Shown here: positions 1,854 through 19,317 of the stretch, piece after piece
Numbering within the stretch: position 1 is the first letter of the stretch
Layout: each line of letters opens with the position of its first letter
IMG/VR virus record: IMGVR_UViG_3300033555_000001
Coordinates: 1-64,000 of that record
DNA from: a virus
Taxonomy: Duplodnaviria; Caudoviricetes
DNA: 64,000 nt
Direction: 5' to 3' (one strand)
Notes under the pieces: generated by a model
Told to the model about the DNA's origin: nothing
What the model saw: only the letters and a program-made list of their open reading frames with translations
The model's database searches: none
Program-made: the position numbers and the translations under genes

Positions 1854-1929
1854 GCCGAGTGAGCTAGTGAAGTCATAGCGCTGGATTGAAAATCCGGAGA
1901 ACATGGAGCGTTACCGTGACTCGGCACCA
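1854..1929 (+). tRNA. tRNA-Phe(GAA), atypical T-loop
   Basis: Acceptor GCCGAGT/ACTCGGC, arm CTGGA-TTGAAAA-TCCGG, T-loop AGCGTTA, CCA. Confidence 0.85.
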
Positions 1930-1934
1930 GAATA

Positions 1935-2006
1935 CTACCGTTCCACTTCGGGTGAGGTGACCTGCCCTTCAAGCAGAGAAGACGAGTTCGACTCTCGTAC
2001 GGTAGA
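1935..2006 (+). tRNA. tRNA-Glu(TTC)
   Basis: Acceptor CTACCGT/ACGGTAG, loop CCTTCAA, T-loop TTCGACT; no encoded CCA. Confidence 0.8.
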
Positions 2007-2012
2007 TAATTT

Positions 2013-2096
2013 GTTCCGTGATGACTGCTGGTAACGGTCAGTACCCTTTCAAGGTACCGCCTCAGGGCTAGGGTTCGACTCCCGTACGCGATACCA
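2013..2096 (+). tRNA. tRNA-Glu(TTC)-like with long D stem and variable arm
   Basis: Arm GTACC-CTTTCAA-GGTAC, 5-bp D stem GACTG/CGGTC, extra hairpin GCC-TCAG-GGC, imperfect acceptor and T stems, ends ACCA. Confidence 0.6.
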
Positions 2097-2099
2097 TTT

Positions 2100-2171
2100 T
2101 TCGTGTTCGACTTCAGGTGAGGTCAGCGGGTAGAAAGCCCGCGTAGACAGGTTCGAGTCCTGTACACGGAA
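2100..2171 (+). tRNA. tRNA-like gene with degenerate anticodon loop (possible pseudo-tRNA)
   Basis: Intact acceptor TTCGTGT/ACACGGA, D arm and T arm (TTCGAGT). The loop TAGAAAG lacks U33 and there is no CCA. Confidence 0.55.
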
Positions 2172-2202
2172 TTAGTTATTCAGTCGTTTAAGTGTACTTT
2201 GC

Positions 2203-2275
2203 TCCAGTGTAGCTCAGTGGTAGAGCAGCTCCCTGTTAAGGAGACGGTCGTTGGTCCGATCCCAGCCTCTGGAGC
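2203..2275 (+). tRNA. tRNA-Asn(GTT)
   Basis: TAGCTCAGTGGTAGAGC D arm, loop CTGTTAA, T-loop TCCGATC; no CCA. Confidence 0.8.
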
Positions 2276-2368
2276 AAAGTACATTTTAAAGTAACAACGC
2301 CTACACGGTGTAATCGCAAAAAACGAGAGCGTCTGTTCTCGTGATTAATTCTGTGTAGGCTTTTCAGT

Positions 2369-2443
2369 TGGGTGCAGGCGGATTGGCGACGCGCGACCTT
2401 TTGAGGGTCGAAGTACAGAGTTCGATTCTCTGGTGCCCTACCA
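2369..2443 (+). tRNA. tRNA-Gln(TTG)
   Basis: Arm CGACC-TTTTGAG-GGTCG, T-loop TTCGATT, CCA. Confidence 0.9.
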
Positions 2444-2449
2444 ACATTT

Positions 2450-2522
2450 AGTTCCAAGGTGTTCATGGACGCACACGGCCCTGTCACGGCTGAGGAGAGG
2501 GGATCGTTACCCCCTGGAACTG
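2450..2522 (+). tRNA. tRNA-Asp(GTC), atypical T-loop
   Basis: Acceptor AGTTCCA/TGGAACT, arm CGGCC-CTGTCAC-GGCTG, T-loop ATCGTTA; no CCA. Confidence 0.8.
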
Positions 2523-2530
2523 GCGAATAT

Positions 2531-2602
2531 ATGTCTGCCGATGGATACGGTTTTGGCCCTGCGAAGGCTGAACAGCAGGTTCGATTCCTGCCAGACGTAC
2601 CA
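2531..2602 (+). tRNA. tRNA-Arg(GCG), non-canonical 72-nt form
   Basis: Acceptor ATGTCTG/CAGACGT, arm TGGCC-CTGCGAA-GGCTG, TTCGATT, ACCA. The D hairpin directly follows the acceptor stem. Confidence 0.75.
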
Positions 2603-2610
2603 ACATTAAT

Positions 2611-2687
2611 GGGTCTTAGGCCGAAGAGGATTAGGCACCTGGCTTTTAACCAGACATTAGGGGGTTCGAGTCCCCCAGGACCCACCA
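2611..2687 (+). tRNA. tRNA-Lys(TTT)
   Basis: Acceptor GGGTCTT/AGGACCC, loop CTTTTAA, TTCGAGT, ACCA. Confidence 0.9.
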
Positions 2688-2726
2688 ATACAGCAGGCTG
2701 ATATACTTACCAGCCTGCGCTACCAG

Positions 2727-3131
2727 TTAATCCAGGAAAATAATTCTAGCAGTACCGCTTTGCACGGTATTGAAGGTTATTGTAATTGTGTCTGGATCGT
2801 TGATAGTAATAGAGTCCGGAAAAATAACGGACTTGTTATTATCAAACGCCTGCACTATTACATTCTCCGAATTGAAGTTATGATTGACTACCCAGGTCAT
2901 GGCGGGTGTAGTTACTGGCACGATTGCTTTACGAATACCATTTCCTGCAAGCGGCAAACCCACAAGAGCCCCGTTCACAAAGGCAAGTACCTGCCCTTCT
3001 TGAAGTGTAATAGCGTCGAACTGACGAGGTCCTGCACCACGTCGAACGATAATAGTTTCTTGGGCTGGGTCCGTGTTTAGGTAGCCACGTTTTGGCAATT
3101 CTACCTGGACAAAGTCTTCAAAAGCACTCAT
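2727..3131 (-). CDS. Hypothetical structural protein
   Basis: 134 aa, beta-rich; its start overlaps the stop of the upstream 548 aa gene by one base. Confidence 0.6.
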   Translation of the reverse strand: MSAFEDFVQVELPKRGYLNTDPAQETIIVRRGAGPRQFDAITLQEGQVLAFVNGALVGLPLAGNGIRKAIVPVTTPAMTWVVNHNFNSENVIVQAFDNNKSVIFPDSITINDPDTITITFNTVQSGTARIIFLD

Positions 3132-4777
3132 TATGCCACCTCTTCAATGTCTACTTGCAGGGTGCCGGTGGTATTAGCGCCAGCAAAGTCTGCATCGGTG
3201 AGGAAAAGAAAACCACCGTTTGGATTGTAAGTACCATCTGCGTTGGTGATGGTAAAGCCTGCAAAGAACTGTGAAGTATCAGTACGACGCGTCAGCACAG
3301 AAGATCCAGTATAGCTTGCGAGTGTTTTGGTAAAGTCAGTAACGTTAGTACCAATCGCTGCTGTTTGCGAGAATGCTGCAAAGACAAGAGTTCGACGAAC
3401 AAAACCACCAACAACATAAGAGGCACCAGCGGTAATTGTAGAACCAGCTACATTTGCAATATTCGTTAAAACAAGCGTGTTAAACGTTTGTGATCCATCT
3501 ACATCTGCATCAGTGATTCTGAGCGTACGTGAGTAAACTCCGGCTGAGAACGTCCATGCACCCTGAAAAGTTCCGCTTGAAGCAACTAGAGTTGGCAGCG
3601 CATTCAGCAGTTGATTTGCGGTAATACGTACCGTGTAGTCCTTACCCGCTGGTGTTGATGTAAGTCGGGTTGGATTTCCAACAATTGAAATTGCTGCTGT
3701 TGGAGCCGTATTTGCAATTGAAATAGCTGCTGTACTAACCGTAACTGCGGCGTTCGAAGTTTTTGTTGCGGTAATTGTATAGTTCTGAACTCCAATTACA
3801 TAGCCACCGCTGACACGCGTTACGGTCTTTGTTGCACCATAGACTGATGGGTCAGTTACTGACAGATCTGCTGAAGAAGTGTATGTAACCGTATCTGCAC
3901 TAGTAACAGCAGCGGTAACAGTCGAGGACTCTGTGCCCTTCAGCGCAGATTGACCAGTTGGGTAAGTAATAACACGAGCTGCAATGCCCGGATAAGTCTG
4001 ATTCAGTGTAACTGTATTAGTGGTAAGGACGGTGGAACCAAAGGTTCCAAGAGCGTTGCGCGCCCGAACTGATGCACTTTGAACGCCAGATGCCGCGCCC
4101 ACAATAAAGGTGCCTGTTAAAGTTTTAAATCCGGTACCACCTGAATCTGTTGCTCCCAGCGTTAGCGAAGAAATAGATTTTGCTGCACCGCTGACTATAA
4201 CTTCAGCGTACGTTGCCGAGTTAGCTACAACACCAGAGATTGGCAGCACGTCATTTTGCTTTACCTCTGTTTGAGATCCTGGAAGCACTCCAATTGTGGC
4301 AGTCTGTACGGCTGGGCCTGCTTCAGCAACGGTGATTGTTGCAGTAGCTGTTGCATTTGTGTTTGACGTAATTGTGACAACAGAGTTCACAGTAATAATT
4401 AAGTCTGCAAAACCAGAGAAGAAGCGACGGTCAAACTGGTCTTCTGAAATGGTACCGGTAATTGGTCCACCGGCTTGTGGTGGCTCAGTTGTTACGGTAA
4501 CAGTTGGAGAATAAAAAGCTGATCCACCCTCTGCAATAAATGAGACACGAACGTTTTGTGTATCAGTCGTGCCGTTAATAATGACCCTGTTTGCTGGAAT
4601 AGTGTTGGGAACAAATTGCTTATTGCCAACAATACCCGTTGATGTTGGGGAAATGTCTGTGATGAACACACCCCCTACAATGGCACCCGAGATCACCTGA
4701 GCATCAACATATCTCTTTGTTGCTATTTCTTGAGGCAGTGTTGGATCAGTAGTCGCGGTGCTTTGATAAATCTTCAT
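3131..4777 (-). CDS. Thr/Ser/Gly-rich beta-sandwich (Ig-like) virion protein
   Basis: 548 aa with surface/structural composition; TATAAATA on the minus strand at 4826-4833 upstream. Confidence 0.6.
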   Translation of the reverse strand: MKIYQSTATTDPTLPQEIATKRYVDAQVISGAIVGGVFITDISPTSTGIVGNKQFVPNTIPANRVIINGTTDTQNVRVSFIAEGGSAFYSPTVTVTTEPPQAGGPITGTISEDQFDRRFFSGFADLIITVNSVVTITSNTNATATATITVAEAGPAVQTATIGVLPGSQTEVKQNDVLPISGVVANSATYAEVIVSGAAKSISSLTLGATDSGGTGFKTLTGTFIVGAASGVQSASVRARNALGTFGSTVLTTNTVTLNQTYPGIAARVITYPTGQSALKGTESSTVTAAVTSADTVTYTSSADLSVTDPSVYGATKTVTRVSGGYVIGVQNYTITATKTSNAAVTVSTAAISIANTAPTAAISIVGNPTRLTSTPAGKDYTVRITANQLLNALPTLVASSGTFQGAWTFSAGVYSRTLRITDADVDGSQTFNTLVLTNIANVAGSTITAGASYVVGGFVRRTLVFAAFSQTAAIGTNVTDFTKTLASYTGSSVLTRRTDTSQFFAGFTITNADGTYNPNGGFLFLTDADFAGANTTGTLQVDIEEVA

Positions 4778-5030
4778 TTGTCAAGCTCCTGTTAATATAA
4801 AATACATCTTTAAGATACAAATCCATATTTATAAGTGCTGCCATGCCCCGTTTTGACGCGGGTGAAAATAAATGGCGGTATAACATTAACATCCCTCTGC
4901 TTACGGATTAAGCTCGAGCGCTTCGAACGCTTGATGGGTGGTTTGACTCCATCCAGAGGGGCCAAGTTTCAATGGTGCGTTTCGCGTGTTTGGTATTGTA
5001 AATACTTCATATTACCAAAGGGGAGTAACA

Positions 5031-5417
5031 ATGATACTGCGTGAATTATTAAAATTGACAGAACAAAAGGTGTTTGCCACTGGCAAAAATGGAGCTCCAA
5101 GTAAATGCTTCCGGGAGGTTACATCACCTAGTTTGCCTAAAGATACCATCATAGGTTATGGCTCTGTCAGTGACGGAACAGAGACAGTTACACATGTGTT
5201 CCTTCTGGATGATAATGGAGACATTCAAGAACCAACCATGATGAAAGGGCAAACAGGCTTTGCGAAAGGCGCACCTATCACTCATCTGAAATACAAAGTG
5301 CTTGGTACGATTAAGCTTGGTGATCTGCCGAATGACGGCACTGATGGCATGCAGAAATGGAAAACTCGTGAAATAGCCATAGCAAAAATTGCCAATGAGG
5401 CAGCTAAGACAACTTAA
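5031..5417 (+). CDS. Hypothetical protein, candidate internal virion protein
   Basis: GGGAG RBS then MILRELLKLTE. Confidence 0.6.
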   Translation: MILRELLKLTEQKVFATGKNGAPSKCFREVTSPSLPKDTIIGYGSVSDGTETVTHVFLLDDNGDIQEPTMMKGQTGFAKGAPITHLKYKVLGTIKLGDLPNDGTDGMQKWKTREIAIAKIANEAAKTT

Positions 5418-5438
5418 CATCAGAATTACGATTTCAAT

Positions 5439-5515
5439 GGTGCCTGTAGTGTAATGATTTAACACCTCCCCCTGTGAAGGGGATATAGCGGGTTTGATTC
5501 CCGTCAGGCACCCCA
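5439..5515 (+). tRNA. tRNA-His(GTG)
   Basis: G-1 present, arm TCCCC-CTGTGAA-GGGGA, C73, CCA. Confidence 0.9.
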
Positions 5516-5536
5516 TTTTTTTAATCAGGAGTTATC

Positions 5537-5716
5537 ATGACAGAACTACAACGTGCAAGTGCACGATTATTTGGCCCGCACGGTATTGGCTGCAGCGATA
5601 TTAAAATTTTTCCGGGCGATGGTCAGTTCACGGCGGAGCAATTAGCAGGTGAAATCAACAAAGCGTTAGACGCGCTTCAGAGCGGTAACTATGAGCTCGT
5701 GCTTGAGGATGACTGA
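5537..5716 (+). CDS. Hypothetical protein (59 aa)
   Basis: AGGAG RBS; MTELQRASARLFGPHG...; not in the track. Confidence 0.55.
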   Translation: MTELQRASARLFGPHGIGCSDIKIFPGDGQFTAEQLAGEINKALDALQSGNYELVLEDD

Positions 5717-5807
5717 TAGTCTGACTCCTGTAACGACCGTTACACTTTAAACCGGCATTTTTCTCAGGTTGATGTTATAATCACTCATCGACTCACGGAG
5801 AACAAAA

Positions 5808-6077
5808 ATGCAAAAATTAGTTATTATGTGGGATATCGAAGCAAGTGAAACTAAAAATGTTTCTTTAACTTCACCAGTTCTCTACGAATCGCCAAAGAAA
5901 TTTCTGATGGATTTTGAGGCGGCTGTTGTACAGTCTAAGAAAAATAATCAATCTACTTTTATTTTTGCAAATCTCGCGTGGCGAACAGCGGATTTTTACT
6001 TCTCTGGTTGTGACATACCAATACTGCCTGAAGTCTTTACGCTTGACCAATGGTTTGAGGATTTTGTTGCACTTTAA
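5808..6077 (+). CDS. Paralog family A, member 1
   Basis: Shares KLxIxW...PVLYES...F...LDxWFE with 6132 and 7185; has its own promoter TCAGGTTGATGTTATAAT. Confidence 0.75.
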   Translation: MQKLVIMWDIEASETKNVSLTSPVLYESPKKFLMDFEAAVVQSKKNNQSTFIFANLAWRTADFYFSGCDIPILPEVFTLDQWFEDFVAL

Positions 6078-6131
6078 ATTAAAAAATATCAGGTTGATGT
6101 TATAATCACTCATTGACACTCGGAGAGTCTC

Positions 6132-6392
6132 ATGGAAAAGCTGATAGTAATCTGGCAAAAATCGGACTTTTATCACACTGATATGCCGACACCTGTTCTG
6201 TATGAATCACCAGAGAGGTTTCTTAGCGATTTTGCTGCAGCAATTCGTGCTGGTGTCGCCGCCCGCGAGCCAGAAATAAAATTTGCTGGTGTTGAGTGGG
6301 TCTGTGATGATTTTTATTATAATAATGATGTGATCATGTATCCGGACGTGTTTACTGTTGATGAGTGGTTTGAAACATTTGTTCCAAAATAA
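6132..6392 (+). CDS. Paralog family A, member 2
   Basis: Same motifs and same upstream promoter cassette. Confidence 0.75.
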   Translation: MEKLIVIWQKSDFYHTDMPTPVLYESPERFLSDFAAAIRAGVAAREPEIKFAGVEWVCDDFYYNNDVIMYPDVFTVDEWFETFVPK

Positions 6393-6451
6393 TGTACGTA
6401 CTGCTCAATTAAGCGTATAATTTTATTCAATCTTGTAAACCGGAGAATCAG

Positions 6452-6796
6452 ATGCATCGCACCGATACTCACACTCGTAGAATTTACTGCGTAGATGTTG
6501 CGGCTTCCTTTGCTAAACATCGTGCTGATTTGGTAGCTGTGGCAAAAGCTGAAGACTTAACCGTTATTTTAGACAGCGCCGACGGGTTCGTTGCAGAGGG
6601 TTTTGATCACTGCAAGAGTCGAATCAGATATCTTGCTGGTTCAATTGATCAGCCATTTGCGAATGGCCCATCACTGACTTGCATGGACGGGCATCTTATA
6701 TACCACACGCTTTTCCTGCCAAAAAGCGCTAAACCAGAGCAATCACGTAGAACGCAAATCGGCAAACAAATTGGAGGCAACTGCCACGATGTATAA
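6452..6796 (+). CDS. Hypothetical protein
   Basis: GGAG RBS, 114 aa. Confidence 0.5.
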   Translation: MHRTDTHTRRIYCVDVAASFAKHRADLVAVAKAEDLTVILDSADGFVAEGFDHCKSRIRYLAGSIDQPFANGPSLTCMDGHLIYHTLFLPKSAKPEQSRRTQIGKQIGGNCHDV

Positions 6797-7046
6797 TAAG
6801 ACTAAAACTGAAGCACCATTCATCCCTGATGGTTATTTGGACAACGTAAATCAAGCTATTGCCGAAGCAAACTCGCGCTTGAACAGAGCAGGAATGCCAA
6901 CTTATTCAGACCTCTTAGATATGCTTCGAACAGCCGAGACCCTTATCACGGGAGAGTTTAATTCTGCATTTGCCCACCAAGATGAAACTATTCAGCTGAT
7001 GGCACAAATACACAGTGCTTTCATTTATGCGGGCCGCAAAACGTGA
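6789..7046 (+). CDS. Hypothetical protein
   Basis: GGAGG RBS before ATG 6789. Confidence 0.55.
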   Translation: MYNKTKTEAPFIPDGYLDNVNQAIAEANSRLNRAGMPTYSDLLDMLRTAETLITGEFNSAFAHQDETIQLMAQIHSAFIYAGRKT

Positions 7047-7184
7047 ATCATGTTGAGCTCTCCAAGCTAGCACACTTCAAGCAATGGAACACTTCCTGGG
7101 TGACACAGACACGGCGCCCACCTGAAGAGCGGGAGAATACGATCGTTGCCAACACCAAGGACCATTTTTATTGTCGAGAGTAAT

Positions 7185-7472
7185 ATGAAAAAATTAGTTA
7201 TTCAGTGGAAACACGGCGATGACTGCACGTACAGCTGTACTTTAACGCAGCCAGTTCTGTATGAATCAGCTGAAGCGTTCTTAGTAGAATTTGAAGACGC
7301 GGTTGTTCAGGCAATGCACGCGGGTGTTGCAGAGTTTACATTTGCAAATATAATTTGGAACACTCACGAATTTACAGCGTTTAGTTTTATATATGACTGC
7401 ACGTCCCCCGTACTTCCTGCAGTTGCCGAGCTTGACGAGTGGTTTGAAATTAACTGTCAAGCGGTTAATTAG
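7185..7472 (+). CDS. Paralog family A, member 3
   Basis: MKKLVIQW...PVLYES...LDEWFE. Confidence 0.75.
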   Translation: MKKLVIQWKHGDDCTYSCTLTQPVLYESAEAFLVEFEDAVVQAMHAGVAEFTFANIIWNTHEFTAFSFIYDCTSPVLPAVAELDEWFEINCQAVN

Positions 7473-7695
7473 TTTTTGTGAGTTAGCACTAGTGGAAGTG
7501 CACTGCCCCCATACGGCAGAACGAAATCAGTTCGAACCTGATACTCACAACCAAACATATTGCCCTTTAGTTATAATATCACTTCAGTCAGAAAACAAGG
7601 TTGTTCTTTTATAATCCTTTTTTCGACGGTTGCTAAATAGATATTGCAGGAACAAACTGTCGTTGACAGTCTCCTAACTACTCAAAGGACATAAA

Positions 7696-8109
7696 ATGAT
7701 TAAATCTACTCTCGTAGTTCTGACTGCCGCTGCATCGCTTGGTCTGACAGGCTGCGCAACTAAGCAACAAACTGGCGCGCTGGTTGGTACCATTGTTGGT
7801 GCTGCAGTGCTTGGCCCAATTGGCGGCAGTGCAGCTGCTCACATTGGTGCGGCAATTGTTGGTGGTGTTATTGGTAACATTATCGGTTCAAAGATTGGTG
7901 CAAGCATGGATGCTCGTGATCGTATGCTGGCTCAAGACGCAGTTGCTCGCAACCAAAAGACCACAATCACCAGCACAAGCTCGAACGCTGTTTACGTTGT
8001 AACTCCAGAAGACCAGGGTAACGGTACCTCCAGAGTTACCATGGAACGGACGCAGGACGGTAAGACTTCTTCAGAAACAGTTATCATGAAGAAGCCAATC
8101 CGCGAGTAA
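7696..8109 (+). CDS. Glycine-zipper 2TM lipoprotein
   Basis: Lipobox LTGC, GAxxGAxxG zipper; TAAATAG at 7634. Confidence 0.75.
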   Translation: MIKSTLVVLTAAASLGLTGCATKQQTGALVGTIVGAAVLGPIGGSAAAHIGAAIVGGVIGNIIGSKIGASMDARDRMLAQDAVARNQKTTITSTSSNAVYVVTPEDQGNGTSRVTMERTQDGKTSSETVIMKKPIRE

Positions 8110-8135
8110 TCAAGGTTAGTTCAGTTATAAATAAG

Positions 8136-8160
8136 AGGAGTCTTACGGGACTCCTTTTTT
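8136..8160 (+). terminator. Intrinsic terminator
   Basis: AGGAGTC/GACTCCT hairpin followed by a T run. Confidence 0.7.
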
Positions 8161-8169
8161 GATTTCAAT

Positions 8170-8241
8170 GCACCGATGCCAGAATGGTAATGGGCGCAGC
8201 TGCAACCTGCGTATTTGGCGGTTCGATTCCGTCTCGGTGCT
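8170..8241 (+). tRNA. tRNA-Cys(GCA)
   Basis: Acceptor GCACCGA/TCGGTGC, loop CTGCAAC, U73. Confidence 0.88.
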
Positions 8242-8250
8242 CATGAATAT

Positions 8251-8324
8251 GGGGAAATAGTTTAGTGATAGAACAGGGCACTCCAAACGCTCTGGCCGAG
8301 GTGTGATTCCTCGTTTCCCTGCCA
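8251..8324 (+). tRNA. tRNA-Trp(CCA), copy 1
   Basis: Loop CTCCAAA, T-loop TGTGATT, GCCA end. Confidence 0.75.
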
Positions 8325-8363
8325 GCTTTATGTTAAAATATTATTTTAACTACTAATATTACA

Positions 8364-8555
8364 ATGAACGCACTTGAACGAATTTGGGCCCGAGCCACTG
8401 GCCACTTAATGGGCGAAACAGATCAGGATCGTCCTGATGTTCCAGTGTTAAAATTAAAAGAGGCCAGAATTGCTTTGGCTCTAAAAACATTCTGGATTGT
8501 GCTTCATACTGTAACCTGCGTTGCGATCATTGCAAATGTAATCAGGCACTGGTAA
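8364..8555 (+). CDS. Small membrane protein
   Basis: 63 aa with a C-terminal hydrophobic helix ending VIRHW. Confidence 0.6.
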   Translation: MNALERIWARATGHLMGETDQDRPDVPVLKLKEARIALALKTFWIVLHTVTCVAIIANVIRHW

Positions 8556-8569
8556 TCACAATGAACGCT

Positions 8570-8641
8570 ACCTCGTCTGTGGGATACAGTATTGGGACTT
8601 CTAATCCTGAATGAGAGGTTCGACTCCTCTACGAGGTCCCA
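8570..8641 (+). tRNA. tRNA-Arg(TCT), non-canonical 72-nt form
   Basis: Acceptor ACCTCGT/ACGAGGT, loop CTTCTAA, TTCGACT, CCA. The D hairpin CTGT-GGGAT-ACAG directly follows the acceptor. Confidence 0.75.
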
Positions 8642-8687
8642 TCAGCCACGCGCCAGCTAAATAGCTCTATATTTTTATGGAGCCTAA

Positions 8688-9281
8688 ATGATTAACCTTC
8701 CACGCCTGCAAATTCTTGCAGAAGCACGCCAGCCTGATTTAAAGTACAGTGACAAACGCGTCAAGGGCGCACTTGAAAAAGTAACACTTGAGCTCCAAGG
8801 TAACAACTCTGGTGCCATGACACGGCTTACAAAACGCTATGAGCGCCTGGACCGATCAGCAAAGCTGCTGACTGAAAAACGAAATGAAGTAAACGCGCAG
8901 ATTAAAAATGTTGGTGATCAGCTCTTTGATGCTGAGGACAGTATTGCTACGCGAATTATCGAAACAATTTCATGCACCATCATGTTAACTGCTGCGCAGA
9001 AAGCAGCTGACAAAGCGCCAAGCAAAAAGATTGATTTTGAATCAGCATACGCTGAGCTTGCAAAGCTAGTGCCAGAGCTGCAGGAAAAAGTCGATATGAT
9101 TACTGCTAAGTACACCGAAATTATTGCCGCAAAAGATACTCCAACGGCTCTTCGAGTAAAATTGAAAGAGGGAATTTTGGATACCTTAAAGAGCTGGATC
9201 AAAGGGTTTATCAGCGAAATTAAATCTTGGGGAACATCTTATGACGCTAAGCTTGCCAAAATTAAGGCGCTGCTGAAATGA
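8688..9281 (+). CDS. Helical hypothetical protein, candidate virion protein
   Basis: 197 aa; TAAATAG at 8658; GGAG RBS. Confidence 0.65.
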   Translation: MINLPRLQILAEARQPDLKYSDKRVKGALEKVTLELQGNNSGAMTRLTKRYERLDRSAKLLTEKRNEVNAQIKNVGDQLFDAEDSIATRIIETISCTIMLTAAQKAADKAPSKKIDFESAYAELAKLVPELQEKVDMITAKYTEIIAAKDTPTALRVKLKEGILDTLKSWIKGFISEIKSWGTSYDAKLAKIKALLK

Positions 9282-10123
9282 AATTAAGCGAACTTCTATG
9301 TGAAAACGCGTCTGGTTATGATAATCTGAGTTCGTCTGCAAAAGAAATGTTGGCTTATCTTATTCATGATAAGTCACACGTGTTTGATAAAATCTCAACC
9401 AACAAAGACATGGTTGAAGTGCTCAGCAAGCACTCTGAAAAATGTAATAAGACACTGTATCGCGGTGTTTCACCTGCAGAGCTAAAGCAAATTAAGGCTG
9501 GAAAACCGCTTTCCTATCACACCTCATATTCAGAATCAAAAGAAATTGCTGAGGGTTTTGGGACAGTTATCACGGTACTTCCACCAACTACAGGTTTTTG
9601 CTATTGGAAGTACCAAAAGAAAACTCTTGAAGCTTTGCGCAAAAACGATCCAGAAGAATTTGATTCTGTCGATGGAGAACACGATCTTAAATTATCTCTT
9701 GACGAAAAAGAATGGATTTTTGATATTGGTGTAGTGTTCACGGAAACCGCTGAACTTACATATAAATTTGGCGCCGCAGAGCAAACAAAGAAAGCTGATG
9801 TTGCGGCGGCTAGCGATGCTTTAAAAATTGAAGACATAAAAGTCGGCGATAGAGTCTCGTTCTTATCTGATACCACATACGGGACAGGTGAGAAGAGTAG
9901 ACAGGCCGGTAAAGTAGTGTCAATCACTAGAGCTGGAGAACCTATTCCAGCCGTTCCAGGCTATGATTTCAGCATAAACAATAAAGATTCACAGCCGGGA
10001 AAACCTACAAAATTTGATTTGTTGTTTGTGAAAGCGGAACATGTTAACCTCGCTGGTAAAATTAGCTATGTGCCGATGCTCAGCAGTCAAATTGTTAAGA
10101 GTGCTAAATTTAGTTGGGAATAG
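9278..10123 (+). CDS. Putative ADP-ribosyltransferase (R-S-E class)
   Basis: LYRG, TSYS and EKE motifs in the correct order; C-terminal SH3-like segment. Confidence 0.55.
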   Translation: MKLSELLCENASGYDNLSSSAKEMLAYLIHDKSHVFDKISTNKDMVEVLSKHSEKCNKTLYRGVSPAELKQIKAGKPLSYHTSYSESKEIAEGFGTVITVLPPTTGFCYWKYQKKTLEALRKNDPEEFDSVDGEHDLKLSLDEKEWIFDIGVVFTETAELTYKFGAAEQTKKADVAAASDALKIEDIKVGDRVSFLSDTTYGTGEKSRQAGKVVSITRAGEPIPAVPGYDFSINNKDSQPGKPTKFDLLFVKAEHVNLAGKISYVPMLSSQIVKSAKFSWE

Positions 10124-10242
10124 ATAGATAAGCGTGTTATAATAGTTTCAAGATAATTCGAGAGCGAGTGAAAGACGAATTATGCTGCCTAGAGAAATTT
10201 AGGTTCTGCGGTTAGCAGAGGTAACAGAGTCTCGCAAGTTAT

Positions 10243-10313
10243 AGGGGCGTGGTGTAGTGATAGCACAAGGGTCTCCAAAACCTTTAGTGGGAGTTTGATT
10301 CTCTCCGCCCCTG
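10243..10313 (+). tRNA. tRNA-Trp(CCA), copy 2
   Basis: Acceptor AGGGGCG/CGCCCCT, arm AGGGT-CTCCAAA-ACCTT; no CCA. Confidence 0.8.
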
Positions 10314-10499
10314 GTCCTGGTTAATTTGTACAAGTAAAGTTCCCTAAGACCCTGCACGGGACAACCCACCAGTAAATGGTCTAGCACAGCCTAGGTAAGC
10401 GGAACCAATCTATAGTTCTAAACTCCATAATCAACAGTTTACACCTCTCTGGTAATAGAGTAGAATAATCTTTTATTCTGGTCTACGTCAAGGGATTTT

Positions 10500-11513
10500 A
10501 TGAATCGCATTGGTTTTGCCTGCAAATGGATCGACAGCGCGTCTCAGGTTAACGCAATTGGCGCCAATGATCCGGCAAAAGAACTTAATCCCTGCACTAC
10601 TACAATTACTTGGCTTGCAAAGCAAACGCGCGAAGTGGCTGAGCAAAAGCTGTTTAGCCTCATGAAGTACAATATTGAGGCCACGCGTCGGTTAGTAGAG
10701 CGAGTTGGCCAGCAGCCTGCGCACTTGCGCATGGTGCGGCTCAGCAGCGATTTGCTCATGGCGTACACACACGTAGACCACCGTGATTGGTGGCAGCGCC
10801 CTGACGTACAGGACTATTTGGAAAAGAATTTTAGAGTTGTTGGCGATTTAGCACGAGCACTAGACGTGCGTCTTAGCATGCACCCTGGCCAGTTCTGCGT
10901 ACTAGCAAGTGTCAGCGATGGAATTATTGAGCGCTCAATTGAAGAATTTGAGTACCACACGGACATGGCCCGATTTATGGGGTACGGCTCAAAGTTCCAA
11001 GACATGAAAATCAACGTCCACATTAGTGGCAAGCGTGGCCCACAGGGTATCAAGGACGCACTCCAGCGACTGTCGCCAGAGGCGCGCAATATGATTACCA
11101 TTGAAAACGACGAGATGAGCTGGGGTGTTGATGCAAGCCTGGCGCTGGCAGATGACCTGGCCTTGGTGCTTGATATTCATCATCACTGGATTCGCACGGG
11201 TGAATACATCCAACCAACTGATTCGCGCTTTCAGGCCATGATCGAATCCTGGCGTGGTGTGCAGCCCGTAATTCACTACAGCGTAAGCAGGGAAGATGTG
11301 TTGCCTGATCATGTTACGACCGTGCTGCCCGACCACGCGGCCCTGCTAAAAACAGGTCACAATAAATCCAAGCTCAGGGCGCACAGCGATTTTTACTGGA
11401 ACACTGCAGTAAGCGATTGGGCAGGCAGCTTCCAGCCCTATGCAGATATTATGTGCGAATGTAAATCCAAGAATTTAGGAAGTGCAGCTTTTGCAGCACA
11501 AGTTTATAAGTAA
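10500..11513 (+). CDS. uvsE: UV damage endonuclease
   Basis: RIGFACK, RLSSD, RLSMHPGQF, TIENDE, LDIHHHW, HYS and RAHSD motifs. Confidence 0.92.
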   Translation: MNRIGFACKWIDSASQVNAIGANDPAKELNPCTTTITWLAKQTREVAEQKLFSLMKYNIEATRRLVERVGQQPAHLRMVRLSSDLLMAYTHVDHRDWWQRPDVQDYLEKNFRVVGDLARALDVRLSMHPGQFCVLASVSDGIIERSIEEFEYHTDMARFMGYGSKFQDMKINVHISGKRGPQGIKDALQRLSPEARNMITIENDEMSWGVDASLALADDLALVLDIHHHWIRTGEYIQPTDSRFQAMIESWRGVQPVIHYSVSREDVLPDHVTTVLPDHAALLKTGHNKSKLRAHSDFYWNTAVSDWAGSFQPYADIMCECKSKNLGSAAFAAQVYK

Positions 11514-11519
11514 AACAAC

Positions 11520-11596
11520 ACGTCTGTAGCTCAATTGGACAGAGCAGCGGTCTTCTAAACCGCAGGTTGTGGATTCAAATTCCGCCAGACGTACCA
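11520..11596 (+). tRNA. tRNA-Arg(TCT), canonical
   Basis: TAGCTCAATTGGACAGAGC D arm, arm GCGGT-CTTCTAA-ACCGC, ACCA. Confidence 0.9.
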
Positions 11597-11632: not shown

Positions 11633-11698
11633 TGGCGCGTAATACACATAACACTCTCAGGCACATCTAAATAGAACTCTCTATTATGCCTTTTTCGT

Positions 11699-12571
11699 AT
11701 GAAATTTTTCAAAAAAATATTGGCGTTAATGCTGGCACTTCCATTTGTCGGAGTGTCCCTGGCTACTGATCGCCCGCTTTATACAATTTACACTGCGTCC
11801 GCAAAGGGCACGTACTACCAATTTGGCCTTGATATTCAACGCGCCTGTCCTCATCTAAAAATTCAAGTAATCAACACACACGGCTCCCTAGACAACGTTA
11901 ATAATCTGATTCAGCCATCAGTGATGAGGACTGGTCACCAGTTTGCTCTTGTCCAAAATGATGCGCTTGCTGCAATGACTGAAGATGAACCGCGGCTTAA
12001 GGCGCTGATCACTCCAGCAATGCGGATGTACAGCGAGGAAATCACCGTGCTTGTTAGCAAGAGCTCTAATATTCAATCGCTGAGCGATCTTGCCGGGAAA
12101 CGAGTAGCAGTTGGAGTTGTAGGATCTGGTACCTGGTTTTCGGCTGCCGCCATCAAGTCTCAGCTTGGCATTACATGGGCTTCGATTGAAATACCAGCAG
12201 AAGAAAGTTTACTTGGTGTGCTGTCCGGGGATATTGACGCGCTTATTACCGTAAGCGGCCACCCAGTAAAATTTTTTAGTGAGCTTGGAGCCAGCATGAA
12301 GGGTCACGTAAAGCTGCTTAACATGAGTGGCGTTGAGCTGGACCAAATGTATAAAACCGCGGTGCTCCCAAAAAACACGTATCTTTGGCAAGACCGCGCC
12401 GTAGAATTACGCTCCACGCGCTCCACTATGATTACTCCTTCATCAACTCCTGAATCGGCCACACGCGCCCTTATTCAGTGCATCAGCTCGAAACAAGAAG
12501 AGCTGCGAGCATGGGGACACCCAAAGTGGCGCACCATGCAGTTTCCAGCAGTATCAACAAAGACTAAGTAG
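11699..12571 (+). CDS. TAXI-family TRAP solute-binding protein
   Basis: Signal peptide; GTYYQFG, THGSLDNVNNL, ALVQND, SLSDLAGKRVAVGxxGSGT motifs. Confidence 0.85.
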   Translation: MKFFKKILALMLALPFVGVSLATDRPLYTIYTASAKGTYYQFGLDIQRACPHLKIQVINTHGSLDNVNNLIQPSVMRTGHQFALVQNDALAAMTEDEPRLKALITPAMRMYSEEITVLVSKSSNIQSLSDLAGKRVAVGVVGSGTWFSAAAIKSQLGITWASIEIPAEESLLGVLSGDIDALITVSGHPVKFFSELGASMKGHVKLLNMSGVELDQMYKTAVLPKNTYLWQDRAVELRSTRSTMITPSSTPESATRALIQCISSKQEELRAWGHPKWRTMQFPAVSTKTK

Positions 12572-12573
12572 CC

Positions 12574-13296
12574 ATGGATCCTAAAAAAGATAAACTGACA
12601 GAAGATAAACTGACAGAAGATAAACTGAGTTGGGTTCCTGCAATACAGGATTTTACCGACAAGTTAACAATAACACGAATTGTCACAGCACTGTTTGCAG
12701 GTATCATGTTCACCGGAATGATGATGGTGTATGAAAACCGTGATTTGATTTTTGAAAAAATTTACAATACCGGCCAGCGCCCGCAACCCAGCGCAATGCT
12801 TTTGTCAGTGTGGGATGTAACTCCTAAAACAAAAGAAGATTTAATTTCCCTAGTAAAGGGTTCCAGCTTAATTTCTTTTGCGCTTATTACTGAAGTTGAC
12901 TTGCAGAAAAACCGCAGCACTGCTAAGCACTGGTTTCTGGACGATCCAAACGAGGCGCAAATCCGAGCGCGGGCTTCTACTGCCCTGCCGCAGGCGGTGT
13001 TTGACTATGACGCCAAAAACACGCAGCAAATGGTAGGTGTGTTAAACAACGATTTTGTGTGTGCCAAATTTACTGACACAATTTACGTGCGGTCATTTCC
13101 TGATCTTGCAAAACGTGTGCCAGTAATATGCCGCATTGCAATTCCACCGTTTTACGGGAAGTTTGTAGGTATCCTAACATTTGGCCTGCGCGTACAGCCT
13201 ACAAAGGACGAACTAGACTCGATTAGACTTGAGGCTTCTAGGCTAGCAGTTGAAATTTACTTGCGCGATATTCTAAAAAAGCAACCAACAAAGTAA
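12574..13296 (+). CDS. Single-TM protein with periplasmic GAF-like domain (T4 holin T-like), paralog 1
   Basis: N-terminal TM segment, two conserved Cys, ICRIAIPPFYGKFVGILTF...IRLEASRLAVEIY. Confidence 0.5.
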   Translation: MDPKKDKLTEDKLTEDKLSWVPAIQDFTDKLTITRIVTALFAGIMFTGMMMVYENRDLIFEKIYNTGQRPQPSAMLLSVWDVTPKTKEDLISLVKGSSLISFALITEVDLQKNRSTAKHWFLDDPNEAQIRARASTALPQAVFDYDAKNTQQMVGVLNNDFVCAKFTDTIYVRSFPDLAKRVPVICRIAIPPFYGKFVGILTFGLRVQPTKDELDSIRLEASRLAVEIYLRDILKKQPTK

Positions 13297-13355
13297 CTGG
13301 TAAACCTGGTAAACTAGCCAAAGATCCCTAAATAGCTTTGTCAAACGGAGCGTGT

Positions 13356-14015
13356 ATGGATCTCAAGAAAGTTTTGCCAGTTGCAGCAAATGTGATTTCT
13401 TGGCTGTCACTGAAAAAGATAGTCATGCTTGTTTGCGCGGGTCTAGTGCTCATTTTTGTCATGACGATTTTTGAAAATCGCTCGGTTGTAACCAAAATCT
13501 TCAAACCAAAAGACTATGCAATTCCAGCTGAACACCGGCTTGTTGTTGCTGACGACACCCAGAAAAAAATTCAAGAGTTAGTAACACGATCGCCCGACAT
13601 CAACATGATCATGATCATTGGCGCAGAGATCAGAGTTAATCAGCGAGAGCTTGTTTACTACTTTTCGGATGACGTAACAATTGATCTAGCAATGAAAAGT
13701 TATATTGGCACCCACTCGACACGTCAACCAATTTTTTCGGTTGACGAGCGCAATAACGCGCAAATGGTCAGCGTGATTAATGGCGAGTTTGGATGCTATA
13801 AGTACGAAGCTTCAATGAGCACGATTATTGCGCCCGCAGTAAGTTTGCAGGCACCAGCAATTTGTCGCATATCACTGCCACCCTACTATGGCGAATTCAG
13901 CGGCTATGTGAATATTACGCTCTCTAAATTCCCCGATGTGGCACTGCAAAATCAAATCAGAATTGACGCTGTTAGACTGGCAACTGAAATTTACGACAGA
14001 AGCCAAAAACAGTAA
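13356..14015 (+). CDS. Holin T-like paralog 2
   Basis: Same layout; ICRISLPPYYGEFSGYV...IRIDAVRLATEIY; TAAATAG at 13329. Confidence 0.5.
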   Translation: MDLKKVLPVAANVISWLSLKKIVMLVCAGLVLIFVMTIFENRSVVTKIFKPKDYAIPAEHRLVVADDTQKKIQELVTRSPDINMIMIIGAEIRVNQRELVYYFSDDVTIDLAMKSYIGTHSTRQPIFSVDERNNAQMVSVINGEFGCYKYEASMSTIIAPAVSLQAPAICRISLPPYYGEFSGYVNITLSKFPDVALQNQIRIDAVRLATEIYDRSQKQ

Positions 14016-14077
14016 TCAGCTGGGCTATTAGCACAGGTATTGTAAATAGAATAACGATTATGTTCTTAGGAGGACTT

Positions 14078-14188
14078 ATGATTTATTTTATTATTGGCGT
14101 AGCAGTTGGCGCAGCATTCTCACCTTTCTGGATCAAGCTTTGGTTTGCAATAAAAGCCAAAGCCCGCGATCTATCGGATAAAAAATGA
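14078..14188 (+). CDS. Small membrane protein (36 aa)
   Basis: AGGAGG RBS; MIYFIIGVAVGAAFSPFWIKLW; TAAATAG at 14043. Confidence 0.6.
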   Translation: MIYFIIGVAVGAAFSPFWIKLWFAIKAKARDLSDKK

Positions 14189-14388
14189 TCCCCGATCTAC
14201 AGGTCGGCACACCTGTCCTGGCACTGATGGCCGGCACTTTTGCGTGGGTGCTCTTTATTATTGTGCGCAGAGGCGTGGCATGTCATTCCTGGCGCAAAAA
14301 CCTAAACCGACGAGCTGAAACAAACAAAAAAGCAGAGGCAGTATTACACCGACGCCGTACTGATGGCTCTCTAATTGACACGAACTAG
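14185..14388 (+). CDS. Small membrane protein
   Basis: One TM segment with a basic tail; ATGA overlap with the upstream gene. Confidence 0.55.
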   Translation: MIPDLQVGTPVLALMAGTFAWVLFIIVRRGVACHSWRKNLNRRAETNKKAEAVLHRRRTDGSLIDTN

Positions 14389-14440: not shown

Positions 14441-14483
14441 AGCTTTAACACTAACCTAAAAATATATTATAATTGGAGTCATT

Positions 14484-14936
14484 ATGGATTCAATAGATGA
14501 ACTGCAGTACGAAAAACGCCCAAGGGCCGGTTTAATTCCGTACATGTGGGAAGATGGCATTTTGAAATTTTTGATGATGGTAAGCTCGAACGCTAAATTT
14601 GGCGGACCACGACCAATGATTTCAAAGGGTAAAATTGAAGAAGGCGAGAACACGTTTGAGTGCGCCATTAGAGAAGCTGAAGAGGAGCTTGGTCTAGTGC
14701 GTGAAAATTTGGCCGCTGTTCCAATACTAATTGCCAGCGAGCGTGTTGAGCTCAGGAGTGGAGCGTACAGACTTACCGTATATGCAGCACCAATTCAGGA
14801 CAAGTGGGACTTTAGTAAGTGGTGCGACGAGACCGAGTATATTTTATGGATGTCGCTCGAAGATTTTCGTGAAAACGGTCGTAAGGACCACGTAAAGTAC
14901 GTCGAGCAAGTAGCAGCTCTAGCCGCTCGCCTCTAG
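14484..14936 (+). CDS. NUDIX hydrolase
   Basis: Nudix box GKIEEGENTFECAIREAEEELG. Confidence 0.9.
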   Translation: MDSIDELQYEKRPRAGLIPYMWEDGILKFLMMVSSNAKFGGPRPMISKGKIEEGENTFECAIREAEEELGLVRENLAAVPILIASERVELRSGAYRLTVYAAPIQDKWDFSKWCDETEYILWMSLEDFRENGRKDHVKYVEQVAALAARL

Positions 14937-14945
14937 GAGAAACAG

Positions 14946-15542
14946 ATGCACAAGCACCAGATCCTTGCTCTTGACCAGCAAGGACAGCCGCACCGATGGA
15001 TTAGCGCAGAGCTTGCAATTACATACCACGCCAAAGGTTTGGTCGCTTGGCAACTGGGCGATGAGGCGCACTTGTTGTTTCGTGGTGGTGACAACAGAGT
15101 AACTGGTCAGCAATCTCAAATTGTTACTGCTCCAATCGTTGCAATAAAGGGCGAGTCCGTGGCCGGCAATAAGCGCGCCAGTCGTGTGCCAACGCTGTCT
15201 AACAAAGAACTCTTTGCCCGAGACCGGTGGACGTGTGCGTACTGCGGCCATATCTTTAATGACACTAAGCTTACTCGTGATCACGTTATCCCGGTGAGCC
15301 GTGGTGGTCTAGACGTGTGGACAAACGTAGTAACAGCGTGCGAATATCATAATCACAAAAAAGATAACAAGCTTTTGCAAGAGGCCGGTATGGAACTGCT
15401 GTACGTACCGTACACACCTAATCGCGCAGAGCACTTGATTCTTAAATCAAGAAGGATGTTACCTGTCCAGGCCGAATACCTGGCACAATTTATTCCTCAG
15501 GCGAGCAGGGCTCATTATCTGTTAGATGAAGTACAACATTAG
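14946..15542 (+). CDS. HNH endonuclease
   Basis: RDRWTCAYCG...TRDHVIPVSRGG...WTNVVTAC...N..K. Confidence 0.88.
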   Translation: MHKHQILALDQQGQPHRWISAELAITYHAKGLVAWQLGDEAHLLFRGGDNRVTGQQSQIVTAPIVAIKGESVAGNKRASRVPTLSNKELFARDRWTCAYCGHIFNDTKLTRDHVIPVSRGGLDVWTNVVTACEYHNHKKDNKLLQEAGMELLYVPYTPNRAEHLILKSRRMLPVQAEYLAQFIPQASRAHYLLDEVQH

Positions 15543-18172: not shown

Positions 18173-18200
18173 GGCCCCTTAACTGGGGCCTTTTTGTTTT
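18173..18200 (+). terminator. Intrinsic terminator
   Basis: GGCCCC/GGGGCC hairpin followed by TTTTTGTTTT. Confidence 0.75.
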
Positions 18201-18248
18201 CCTACGAAAATACACGATAAATAGGCTATCTGTCATACAAAGGAAAAC

Positions 18249-18737
18249 ATGAACACTATTCTACGGGCAATGATCAAGCCCTTTTTAATTTCAACACTAT
18301 TCTTATTCTCTTTGCTTGGGGTAGTGTTTGTGATTGGTCGCATGATTGGCTATGATGCGGTACCACCAGTGCAAGTACTCTACGCTGCCACTGATGTCAC
18401 ATGGTTAATCCAGGCCAGAGCCGCGGTGCACAGTACTGTTACTGTTACCCTAGTGCTAATGGGCATGGTGCTTTTGGCTTCTGCAAAAGTTCAAAGATTC
18501 ACATATGGCCGCCGTACACTTGGAATGACCGCGGTTGGATATATGCTGCTGACTACGGCCGCGTGGAACATGACTGTTGTAGGTTTAATTGTTTACGGCG
18601 GGCCATGGCACTTGATGAGTTTTATTATAGGATTTATTGAAGCCGTTATGGTGACAACTGCTGTGCTAATTATATGTCGTGCAGAATTGCTTAAGAGATC
18701 CGTGCGTGGAGAAAATCGTGAACAGCAGATTCGCTAA
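18249..18737 (+). CDS. Multi-pass membrane protein (about 4 TM)
   Basis: Hydrophobic segments; TAAATAG at 18218; AGGA RBS. Confidence 0.65.
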   Translation: MNTILRAMIKPFLISTLFLFSLLGVVFVIGRMIGYDAVPPVQVLYAATDVTWLIQARAAVHSTVTVTLVLMGMVLLASAKVQRFTYGRRTLGMTAVGYMLLTTAAWNMTVVGLIVYGGPWHLMSFIIGFIEAVMVTTAVLIICRAELLKRSVRGENREQQIR

Positions 18738-19317
18738 ACCATTCTTGATTGCTCTCGCCATAGTGCTCACGGTCATGTTTGCATTTACAGCGCTGTTTTC
18801 AGCTGAGAAATTAAAAAAACTAGACTATGTAAACACTGGATTTTCAAATCAGCTGCACCCGCAGACCATTAGATCCATTGAGGATTACTCTCAGCGGTAT
18901 CCGTTTATTGGCGCTATTTCGTTAATTGGGTTTGACTTTCAGAAAAATACCAGACTCCCAGTGTTTACAATAATTCCAAACGCCCAAATCAAGGAAATAG
19001 TTTCAAAGTATCCTGCTGGTGCCGACATTGCGCCAATTTTTACCAGTGATAAAAAGCAAAACGACGCAATGTCCGCGCTCTTAAACGGTGAATTTGCGTG
19101 CGTAGGCAGCAAAGCAGGTGCATTCTCACGGATCTTTAAATTGCAAGATATACTAACCACGTCCTGCAGAATTCCTATTTTACCGGCAAGTGGGCGCATG
19201 ATTGGTTATCTTGCCGTGCACCTCACAAAAACTCCGACGCCAGCTGAATTAAAGCAAATTGAAGCTGATACTAAAACTATCGCGGCCAGCATTTACTATG
19301 GAGAAGTTGTGCCATAA
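18718..19317 (+). CDS. Holin T-like paralog 4
   Basis: GGAG then GTG start; TM segment; FAC...SCRIPILP...GYLAV...IAASIY. Confidence 0.5.
   Translation: MNSRFAKPFLIALAIVLTVMFAFTALFSAEKLKKLDYVNTGFSNQLHPQTIRSIEDYSQRYPFIGAISLIGFDFQKNTRLPVFTIIPNAQIKEIVSKYPAGADIAPIFTSDKKQNDAMSALLNGEFACVGSKAGAFSRIFKLQDILTTSCRIPILPASGRMIGYLAVHLTKTPTPAELKQIEADTKTIAASIYYGEVVP

Follow-up and report, generated by a model that had tools for sequence, protein, structure and literature searches.

Why would a bacteriophage encode a secreted solute-binding protein when its genome offers no permease for that protein to serve, and why would the gene lie directly ahead of two paralogous single-pass membrane proteins? This question is raised by a cassette in the first 64,000 nucleotides (nt) of IMG/VR record IMGVR_UViG_3300033555_000001, a stretch that we call the window. 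The full record is 310,728 bp long, linear according to IMG/VR and 87% complete by CheckV, and its source is an uncultured jumbo myovirus of ~311 kb whose genes include a tail sheath and tail fibres. Positions are those of the window unless marked as genome positions. The cassette consists of five plus-strand open reading frames (ORFs) in the order TAXI, A, B, s1, s2: a TAXI-family solute-binding protein, a single-transmembrane (single-TM) protein, its paralog, and two tiny ORFs with predicted TM segments (Table 1). An earlier reading of the DNA letters alone (the sequence-only reading) had described this arrangement and proposed that the TAXI protein and two holin T-like membrane proteins might link periplasmic metabolites to the timing of lysis. 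The arrangement itself proved accurate, with A following the TAXI gene almost without a gap, B its paralog (27–30% identity, E 1.6e-26), and both tiny membrane ORFs in place.

Our preferred reading is that A and B form a T-like holin pair with the TAXI protein as a periplasmic modulator of lysis timing, and we give it a probability of roughly 0.3. What is new is the delineation of a large, virus-specific family of tandem-pair proteins, together with an operon that joins the pair to a permease-less TAXI protein and a tiny membrane protein. The TAXI gene could already be named by any annotation pipeline and is not new in itself. We found no publication describing the TAXI-A-B operon in the one literature search made for phage TAXI proteins, which gave only false word matches.

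A virus-specific family of membrane proteins

A and B share an architecture in which a single TM segment precedes a folded C-terminal domain. In the AlphaFold2 model of A (predicted local distance difference test, pLDDT, 87.6), a helix at residues 20–54 holds the TM segment (~31–53) and is followed by a bridge helix (56–67) and an alpha/beta domain with a GAF fold (84–234). The top Foldseek match of this C-terminal domain was the GAF domain of a histidine kinase (3o5y, E 8.6e-6), and dozens of GAF domains matched A at Z 10–12 in VIA-align. As modelled, the C-terminal domain of A and B is a GAF fold. Profile searches did not name it: a Pfam scan of A and B at E ≤ 1 gave no match, including to GAF (PF01590 and related families), the PHROGs family matched by A (phrog_31287) has no assigned function, and the family hidden Markov model (HMM) returned only noise from PDB sequences (CD81, E 0.16). 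Among the fold matches was free methionine-R-sulfoxide reductase, a GAF-fold enzyme with a catalytic Cys pair. We dropped it as a candidate, as its Cys positions do not correspond to those of A and B and nothing else supported it.

The family is widespread among viruses. A had 61 close homologs, and a family profile search of 1.84 billion representative sequences found 396 clusters (at 50% identity) with E ≤ 1e-3. Among the best 150 of these 396 clusters, nearly all proteins were ~190–320 amino acids (aa) long and matched over the same single stretch, a few being shorter fragments, and none carried a fused output domain. Atlas clusters of the family were 89–100% viral in their taxa; judged from these sequences, the single-TM family is virus-specific. 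Five positions are invariant in the family alignment (F143, C163, C186, P192 and Y229), and most members contain exactly two cysteines, which in A probably form a C163–C186 disulfide.

The genome holds five members of this family, which we call A to E, four of them in the window (Table 1). The end of the paralog C gene overlaps the start of a gene for a secreted 292-aa protein, and the unit closes at a strong GC-rich terminator. This secreted protein contains two Cys-bearing repeats of ~70 aa that are nearly identical, along with a charged linker of low complexity. Paralog D forms a further unit with a 162-aa multi-TM protein (18218–19317), a third combination of a TM-GAF paralog with an envelope partner. 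Neither Pfam nor PHROGs gave a match to the tiny ORFs s1 and s2 or to the 292-aa and 162-aa partners of C and D.

Likeness to the holin T of phage T4

The holin T of phage T4 consists of a cytoplasmic amphipathic N-terminal helix, one TM segment, a bridge helix and a globular periplasmic domain (PMC12162936), and the secreted antiholin RI regulates lysis by binding this globular domain (PMC12162936, PMC8385771, PMC11413866). The model of A shows all four elements, namely an N-terminal helix, a TM segment, a bridge helix and a C-terminal globular domain, at the same scale of ~220 aa. Like T (gene t, class III, PF11031; PDB 6PSK, 6PX4, 6PXE), A and B have a Cys pair in the globular domain, are encoded as late-type genes apart from endolysin and spanins, and have a secreted periplasmic partner, which is RI in T4 and a candidate here. 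They differ from T in occurring as a tandem pair at every locus compared and in having five paralogs in this genome.

Structure comparisons brought T forward. With A as the query in VIA-align, the periplasmic domain of T (6pxe_T) ranked first of 48,161 chains (Z 12.4, root-mean-square deviation 3.5, 142 of 147 residues), and Foldseek matched T chains at E 1.9e-4 to 1e-3. In BFVD, A matched over its full length phage proteins that are annotated as holin, class III holin or T holin (E 7.6e-5 to 1.6e-3), and its fold matches also included proteins of RaK2 (E 1.5e-5), GAP32 (E 5.6e-6) and S13. Among language-model neighbours, the best named Atlas clusters of A and B were viral and carried PF11031 on 23% and 12% of their members, respectively. 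Atlas clusters bearing PF11031 scored 0.96–0.97 with 206–210 shared features, compared with 0.81–0.90 for generic GAF clusters.

Profile alignment gave a similar indication. A global hhalign comparison of 206 family sequences with nine T/T5-type holins scored 22.9 (P 2.4e-4, probability 20%) and was colinear over 192 columns, whereas the best of 30 block shuffles scored 11.3 and a reversed profile 3.9. The same alignment places C186 of A on C175 of T. We regard it as fairly probable that A and B are structurally T-like and distantly related to T. That they act in lysis timing we consider somewhat short of an even bet.

We also looked for other holins. When a T profile that recovers T in T4, T5 and other phages was run on this genome and five relatives, no T-type holin came up. 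No holin was seen beside the endolysin or spanins either; the genome's 86 small ORFs with one or two TM segments were not screened. The T4-like Cronobacter phage S13 encodes a family member (S13_076, E 2e-17) and no T was found in it; its authors report a lysozyme but no holin. A weak T-profile match in S13 (E 0.0027) was rejected, because it maps to the antisense strand of nrdD and is interrupted by a stop codon. RaK2 was rejected as a bridge from the family to T: the T profile had no match in this phage at E ≤ 10, and its proteins that match A by fold are thus no closer to T in sequence. A tblastn search with A against ~1,980 phage records holding T gave no matches.

A TAXI protein without a permease in its genome

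The first gene of the cassette encodes a true member of the TAXI family by Pfam, sequence and fold. It matches NMT1_3 (PF16868) with E 6.5e-26 and 92 bits against a cut-off of 27, over profile positions 1–265 of 289, and among PDB sequences it matches VcGluP (8S4J/9IBO, E 1.2e-10). For its AlphaFold2 model (pLDDT 92.7), Foldseek ranks 1–7 are all solved TAXI proteins (E 1e-20 to 1e-16, TM-score 0.71–0.74), led by VcGluP (E 1e-20), and the next class, TctC/Bug, follows only at E 2e-10. The N-terminus reads as a signal peptide, with a basic n-region, a hydrophobic core and an ...SLA/T site, in agreement with the secreted protein that the sequence-only reading had described.

Phage orthologs of this protein form a phage-only clade (39–57% identity), and the nearest cellular TAXI proteins are ~30–34% identical. 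The clade is missing a C-terminal extension of ~45 aa that these nearest cellular relatives have, and it has a conserved Cys pair of its own. VcGluP/VC0430 (8S4J, 9IBO) and Thermus TtGluBP (1US4, 8U79) share with the phage protein the NMT1_3 family and the two-lobed class II binding-protein fold, and their signal peptide has a putative counterpart in it. The phage protein differs from both in being ~40 aa shorter at the C-terminus, in its own Cys pair, in its late-type phage promoter and in the lack of a QM permease in six phage genomes.

We took the glutamate contacts of VcGluP from the literature (PMC11574862) and mapped them onto the HMMER alignment of the phage protein. Eight of the 11 contact positions are kept (the equivalents of S40, Y45, Y46, S75, Q93, E125, G156 and G203), and three are changed, with H123, D157 and Y200 replaced by Tyr, Thr and an aliphatic residue, respectively. 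Because most ligand contacts are kept, the pocket appears functional; to suppose an amino-acid-like ligand is reasonable, but a guess and no more.

We found no match to the TRAP (tripartite ATP-independent periplasmic) permease DctM (PF06808) at E ≤ 1 in the whole record or in five related genomes, two of which are 97–100% complete. A GltS permease was not found in the whole 310.7-kb record, and no ORF in this genome has eight or more hydrophobic (TM) segments. The observation that no TRAP permease accompanies the TAXI gene in the window thus extends to the whole record, and a cognate permease elsewhere in the genome, which the sequence-only reading had considered as another explanation for the gene, was not found. 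The absence is not absolute, because the record is 87% complete and a host permease is also a possible partner; within that scope, the TAXI protein is a true orphan.

Partners of TAXI proteins are not fixed, as shown by Bordetella pertussis, in which the TAXI protein BP0403 has no TRAP membrane partner and is translationally coupled to a GltS-type Na+/glutamate symporter (PMC12344293). The phage cassette is similar in that a TAXI protein without a TRAP partner is coupled to a different membrane protein. It differs in that the Bordetella partner is a polytopic symporter, whereas A and B are single-pass proteins, unable to form a carrier.

Three related genomes (G001–G003) encode second NMT1-like proteins, which we considered as displaced copies of the cassette TAXI and rejected as a different paralog; those of G002 and G003 stand beside pieces of ABC-transporter-like (ATP-binding cassette) genes, which also argues against displacement. 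At these two loci (L026, G002:182500-189000; L027, G003:266500-273000), the second NMT1-like protein is accompanied by an ABC ATPase-like ORF and an ABC permease fragment, and together they may represent an ABC importer, or what is left of one, carried by these phages.

A putative late promoter motif

The TAAATAG motif that had been noted at 11668 ahead of the TAXI gene was confirmed, in the context tCTAAATAGa, and the motif also stands 5' of endolysin, sheath and fibre genes. In the form (C)TAAATA(G), it occurs 27–54 nt 5' of the GH108 endolysin, the tail sheath, one tail fibre, TAXI, B, paralog E and the gene preceding paralog D, and paralog C has two TAAATA copies 42 and 70 nt upstream. TAAATA occurs 142 times in the genome, counting both strands, and 77 of these copies are fully intergenic, although the non-coding share is only 8.7% (91.3% coding). 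The motif is scarcer than expected overall, yet ~six-fold enriched in intergenic DNA, and this concentration argues that it is not a chance motif. The core of the T4 late promoter is TATAAATA, and by likeness to it we read TAAATA as the putative late promoter core of this phage. The cassette would then be made late, as would the endolysin and structural genes with the same CTAAATAG motif.

Conservation of the cassette in related phages

We compared 12 distinct loci from metagenomic jumbo-phage contigs, the window included. A tandem pair of the A-then-B type was present in all 12 loci. Of the 12 first genes, 11 fall into a single short-branched clade in a maximum-likelihood tree (support 100/99), and the second genes are more divergent. 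This tree indicates that the A/B duplication is old, that it predates the divergence of the phage group and that the order of the two genes is fixed.

The TAXI gene lies directly upstream of A in nine of the 12 loci. Where A has a clear start codon (six loci), the distance between the two genes ranges from a 4-nt overlap to 10 nt, and these loci include L002, whose flanks are otherwise unrelated. Both tiny TM ORFs recur in related phages. An s2-like ORF follows B in eight loci, namely the window and seven of the eight other TAXI-bearing loci; s2 was not detected in TAXI-bearing L028 or in the three TAXI-less loci. The flanking order of TAXI and s2 was kept while A orthologs diverged to 45–60% identity. 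The stable core is the A-B pair; in one clade it is flanked by TAXI and s2 as accessories.

Weighing lysis control against other explanations

The preferred reading would work as follows. A and B would be an ancient tandem pair of T4 T-type (class III) holin-like proteins in the inner membrane, possibly a holin/antiholin-like heteromer, and would govern when the separately encoded GH108 endolysin and spanins reach the wall. The TAXI protein would be exported to the compartment that holds the A and B domains and would dock there in the way RI does on T, and an amino-acid-like ligand bound by TAXI in the periplasm would thereby bias the triggering of lysis; s2 may take part. A number of observations weigh against this reading, and we give them below beside the alternatives on which they bear.

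The first group concerns the specificity of the likeness to T. Ordinary GAF domains reach Z 12.3–11 in VIA-align, tying with T, and the fold match to T is therefore not specific. Only four of the ten best named Atlas matches agree on family. The global hhalign signal is carried by the N-terminal and TM part, and the C-terminal domain taken by itself is not significant; local hhalign of A against T profiles gave probabilities of 2–6% (A1 1.8%); and PF11031 matched neither A or B at E ≤ 1 nor anything in the genome at E ≤ 10. The sequence homology of A and B to T is marginal. In T the essential periplasmic disulfide joins C175 and C207, the latter in the last helix, whereas the C163 and C186 of A lie in two strands, and the partner positions thus differ. 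By the positive-inside rule, the count of basic residues on the two sides of the membrane (2.4 versus 2.0) does not fix the topology, and the C-terminal domains are presumed to be periplasmic. The earlier description of A and B as holin T-like GAF proteins therefore holds for the architecture, the GAF fold, the Cys pair and the first rank of 6pxe_T in the structure search, and falls short in the missing PF11031 match, the tie with generic GAF domains and the hhalign probabilities of 2–20%.

One alternative is that these are co-regulated late envelope genes without a shared function, and that the likeness to T is convergence on a TM-plus-GAF layout. Such a view draws on the noise-level similarity of the globular domain to T and on the fact that GAF is a very common fold. 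It does not sit well with the A-first, B-second order kept in 11 of 12 loci, the strongly supported clade of first genes, the tight intergenic distances, or a virus-specific family of 396 clusters, and we consider it quite unlikely.

The paralogs raise a second difficulty, as five copies in one genome are odd for a single holin role. Because C and D are co-transcribed with other envelope proteins, a general adaptor or sensor fits them better than a holin does. A to E might accordingly not be lysis proteins at all; they might be phage-specific, membrane-anchored periplasmic GAF adaptors or sensors, each with a different envelope partner (A/B with TAXI, C with the 292-aa secreted repeat protein, D with the 162-aa multi-TM protein), and act late on the envelope, for instance by excluding superinfection, stabilising the envelope or masking receptors. 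In favour of this, three of the five paralogs belong to distinct late operons, each with its own secreted or membrane protein, generic ligand-binding GAF domains match the fold no worse than T does, no family member is fused to or adjoins an endolysin in the loci examined, and the predicted docking of TAXI (below) is weakly supported. The four-part architecture and ~220-aa length are those of T-type holins, though, and the clusters nearest to A and B by language model are in part PF11031 clusters, not GAF ones. The searches described above recovered no other T-type holin in the genome. Since the family shows no output domain (among its best 150 clusters), a sensor would have to act through its TM segment. 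We hold the adaptor explanation to be possible and somewhat doubtful.

A third group of observations separates TAXI from the pair. TAXI is absent from three loci (L024, L029 and L030) despite the presence of the A-B pair, and it co-varies with s2 rather than with A and B. Since L024 falls inside the TAXI-bearing clade, it looks like a secondary loss of TAXI; in this phage, which also lacks s2, a TnpB-like ORF of 407 aa (IS200/IS605-type; L024 6389–7612, minus strand) lies directly 3' of B. L029 and L030 branch outside the TAXI-bearing clade. TAXI is also found without the pair in other phages, namely RsoM2USA, one Rhizobium phage and a siphovirus from enhanced biological phosphorus removal (EBPR). 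In RsoM2USA, the HMM detected no family member within 5 kb of the TAXI gene.

From this pattern it might be argued that A and B are lysis-timing proteins, and that TAXI and s2 are a separate module sharing the late operon, perhaps feeding a host TAXI-TRAP or GltS-type permease, or else serving some other purpose in the envelope. Cyanophage PstS, which is thought to work with the host Pst system, offers a model. In its favour, gains and losses of TAXI coincide with those of s2, with the A-B pair staying in place; most of the ligand pocket is preserved; and TAXI proteins can serve non-TRAP carriers (PMC12344293). Set against this, TAXI and s2 flank the pair and are not side by side, with the order kept as A orthologs diverged; the TAXI-A gap is 0–10 nt or an overlap; a late promoter shared with endolysin and structural genes would be an odd time for nutrient uptake; and the phage clade has lost the C-terminal extension of its cellular relatives. 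A separate TAXI-s2 module seems rather unlikely to us.

The final point is whether TAXI and the pair touch. We ran one three-chain complex prediction with A (residues 55–240), B (40–219) and mature TAXI as the scored partner, each chain with its own alignment. The score was 0.51 (runs 0.51, 0.01 and 0.60) versus 0.22 for the best control, with contacts agreeing at ≥60% and a partner pLDDT of ≥85. In calibration, 58 of 80 solved complexes and two of 110 mismatched pairs attained the mark; at scores ≤0.60, only seven of the 80 solved complexes did so, together with both of the passing mismatches. The verdict is weak support, with one run of three at 0.01. We also note that the candidate partner is a 29-kDa TAXI protein (290 aa), unrelated to the small antiholin RI. 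Given the conserved coupling, we put the chance of a physical link between TAXI and A/B, as modelled here, at about even. The proposal of TAXI as a ligand-gated lysis partner is thus favoured by the conserved cassette and the complex score above its control, and is weakened by the TAXI-less pairs and the co-variation with s2. Its most specific form, a solute-binding-protein-gated holin in which TAXI, either loaded or ligand-free, docks on the GAF-like domains of A and B and so sets lysis time by a periplasmic metabolite, we consider unlikely.

Genomic setting

Features of the cassette and its surroundings are listed in Table 1. A UvdE-type UV endonuclease gene (PF03851, E 4e-36) lies just 5' of the cassette, and a tRNA-Arg gene precedes its first promoter motif. 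The window contains 14 tRNA genes, and the set (1774–11596) includes duplicate tRNA-Trp(cca) and tRNA-Arg(tct) genes. On the 3' side, a NUDIX hydrolase gene is followed by an HNH endonuclease gene. The NUDIX gene has its own sigma-70-type promoter match (11/12, TTAACA-17-TATAAT), which suggests that the cassette is a unit apart. In most related loci the NUDIX-HNH pair again comes after A-B, with a Ro60/TROVE gene further 3' in several.

Table 1. Coordinates of the cassette, the family paralogs and neighbouring features (window positions unless marked as genome).
Feature	Position	Strand	Remarks
UvdE-type UV endonuclease	10500-11513
tRNA-Arg	11520-11596
Late-type promoter motif CTAAATAG	11667..11674	+	31 nt 5' of TAXI start codon; TAAATAG at 11668
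TAXI, secreted orphan solute-binding protein, 290 aa	11699..12571	+	Putative signal peptide ~residues 1-22; assigned by Pfam, PDB sequence and fold
A, single-TM protein, 240 aa	12574..13296	+	Starts 2 nt past TAXI stop
Second CTAAATAG motif	13328..13335	+	27 nt 5' of B
B, paralog of A, 219 aa	13356..14015	+	Architecture and Cys pair as in A; ortholog starts agree with the ATG at 13356
s1, membrane peptide, 42 aa	14060..14188	+	TAAATAG 17 nt 5' (14043); GAAFS.FWI core kept in L004, L017 and L021
s2, 67 aa	14185..14388	+	N-terminal TM and Arg-rich tail (C..WR.P.N.RR ... RRR); overlaps s1 by 4 nt
Sigma-70-type promoter match	14445-14473		Ahead of NUDIX gene
Sigma-70-type promoter match, NUDIX hydrolase and HNH endonuclease together	14445-15542
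Paralog C, 217 aa	16611..17264	+	TAAATA at 16541 and 16569; co-transcribed with the secreted 292-aa repeat protein
Secreted repeat protein, 292 aa	17261-18139
Terminator	18173-18190		Ends the paralog C unit
Multi-TM protein, 162 aa	18249-18737		TAAATAG at 18218
Paralog D, ~212 aa	18679..19317	+	Overlaps end of the 162-aa protein gene
Paralog E	genome 272700-273389	-
Bax inhibitor-1/YccA family protein, 225 aa	genome 286441-287118	+	Outside the window; L037:42-716

The genome encodes an endolysin (genome 231208-231789) that combines GH108 and PG_binding_3 domains, as well as an Rz-like i-spanin with a lipoprotein-like o-spanin ORF. The spanin pair indicates a Gram-negative host. One public DNA run, labelled as an ice metagenome, contains the sequence and may be the source sample; no RNA run among public sequencing runs is listed with the sequence. 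A megablast search of the region against 50,697 phage records gave no match.

Two other regions of the genome stood out. Outside the window lies a gene for a seven-TM protein of the Bax inhibitor-1/YccA family (PF01027, E 6.5e-44), a host-type membrane modulator of cell death or FtsH carried on a phage, which could bear on lysis timing. Within the window, a PrkA/YeaG-type serine kinase gene is the first of a set (23119–25077, 25135–26808, 28920–30512 and 30509–31999) and is 52–57% identical to genes of Enterobacter phage LAU1, huge uncultured phages and RsoM2USA. Next come two large paralogs with matches to PHROGs families of homing/HNH endonucleases, and last a phrog_35217 protein; the region may be a split or invaded stress-kinase operon.

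Implications for phage lysis and TAXI proteins

The timing of lysis is a central fitness trait of phages. To our knowledge, T4 lysis inhibition, in which RI binds the globular domain of T, is the only well-understood periplasmic signal input to lysis. In one jumbo-phage clade, the tandem pair is joined in an operon with a permease-less metabolite-binding protein. If this link is functional, phages could read metabolites of the host or environment to decide when to lyse; it would be the first case in which a transporter-type binding protein puts phage lysis under the control of a small molecule, and a new non-transport use of TAXI proteins. The components are all small and directly testable in E. 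coli. Even if the link is not functional, the cassette adds to evidence that phage TAXI proteins have a non-transport role, and these jumbo phages, like the S13-like relatives of T4, have in this family a strong candidate for their missing holin.

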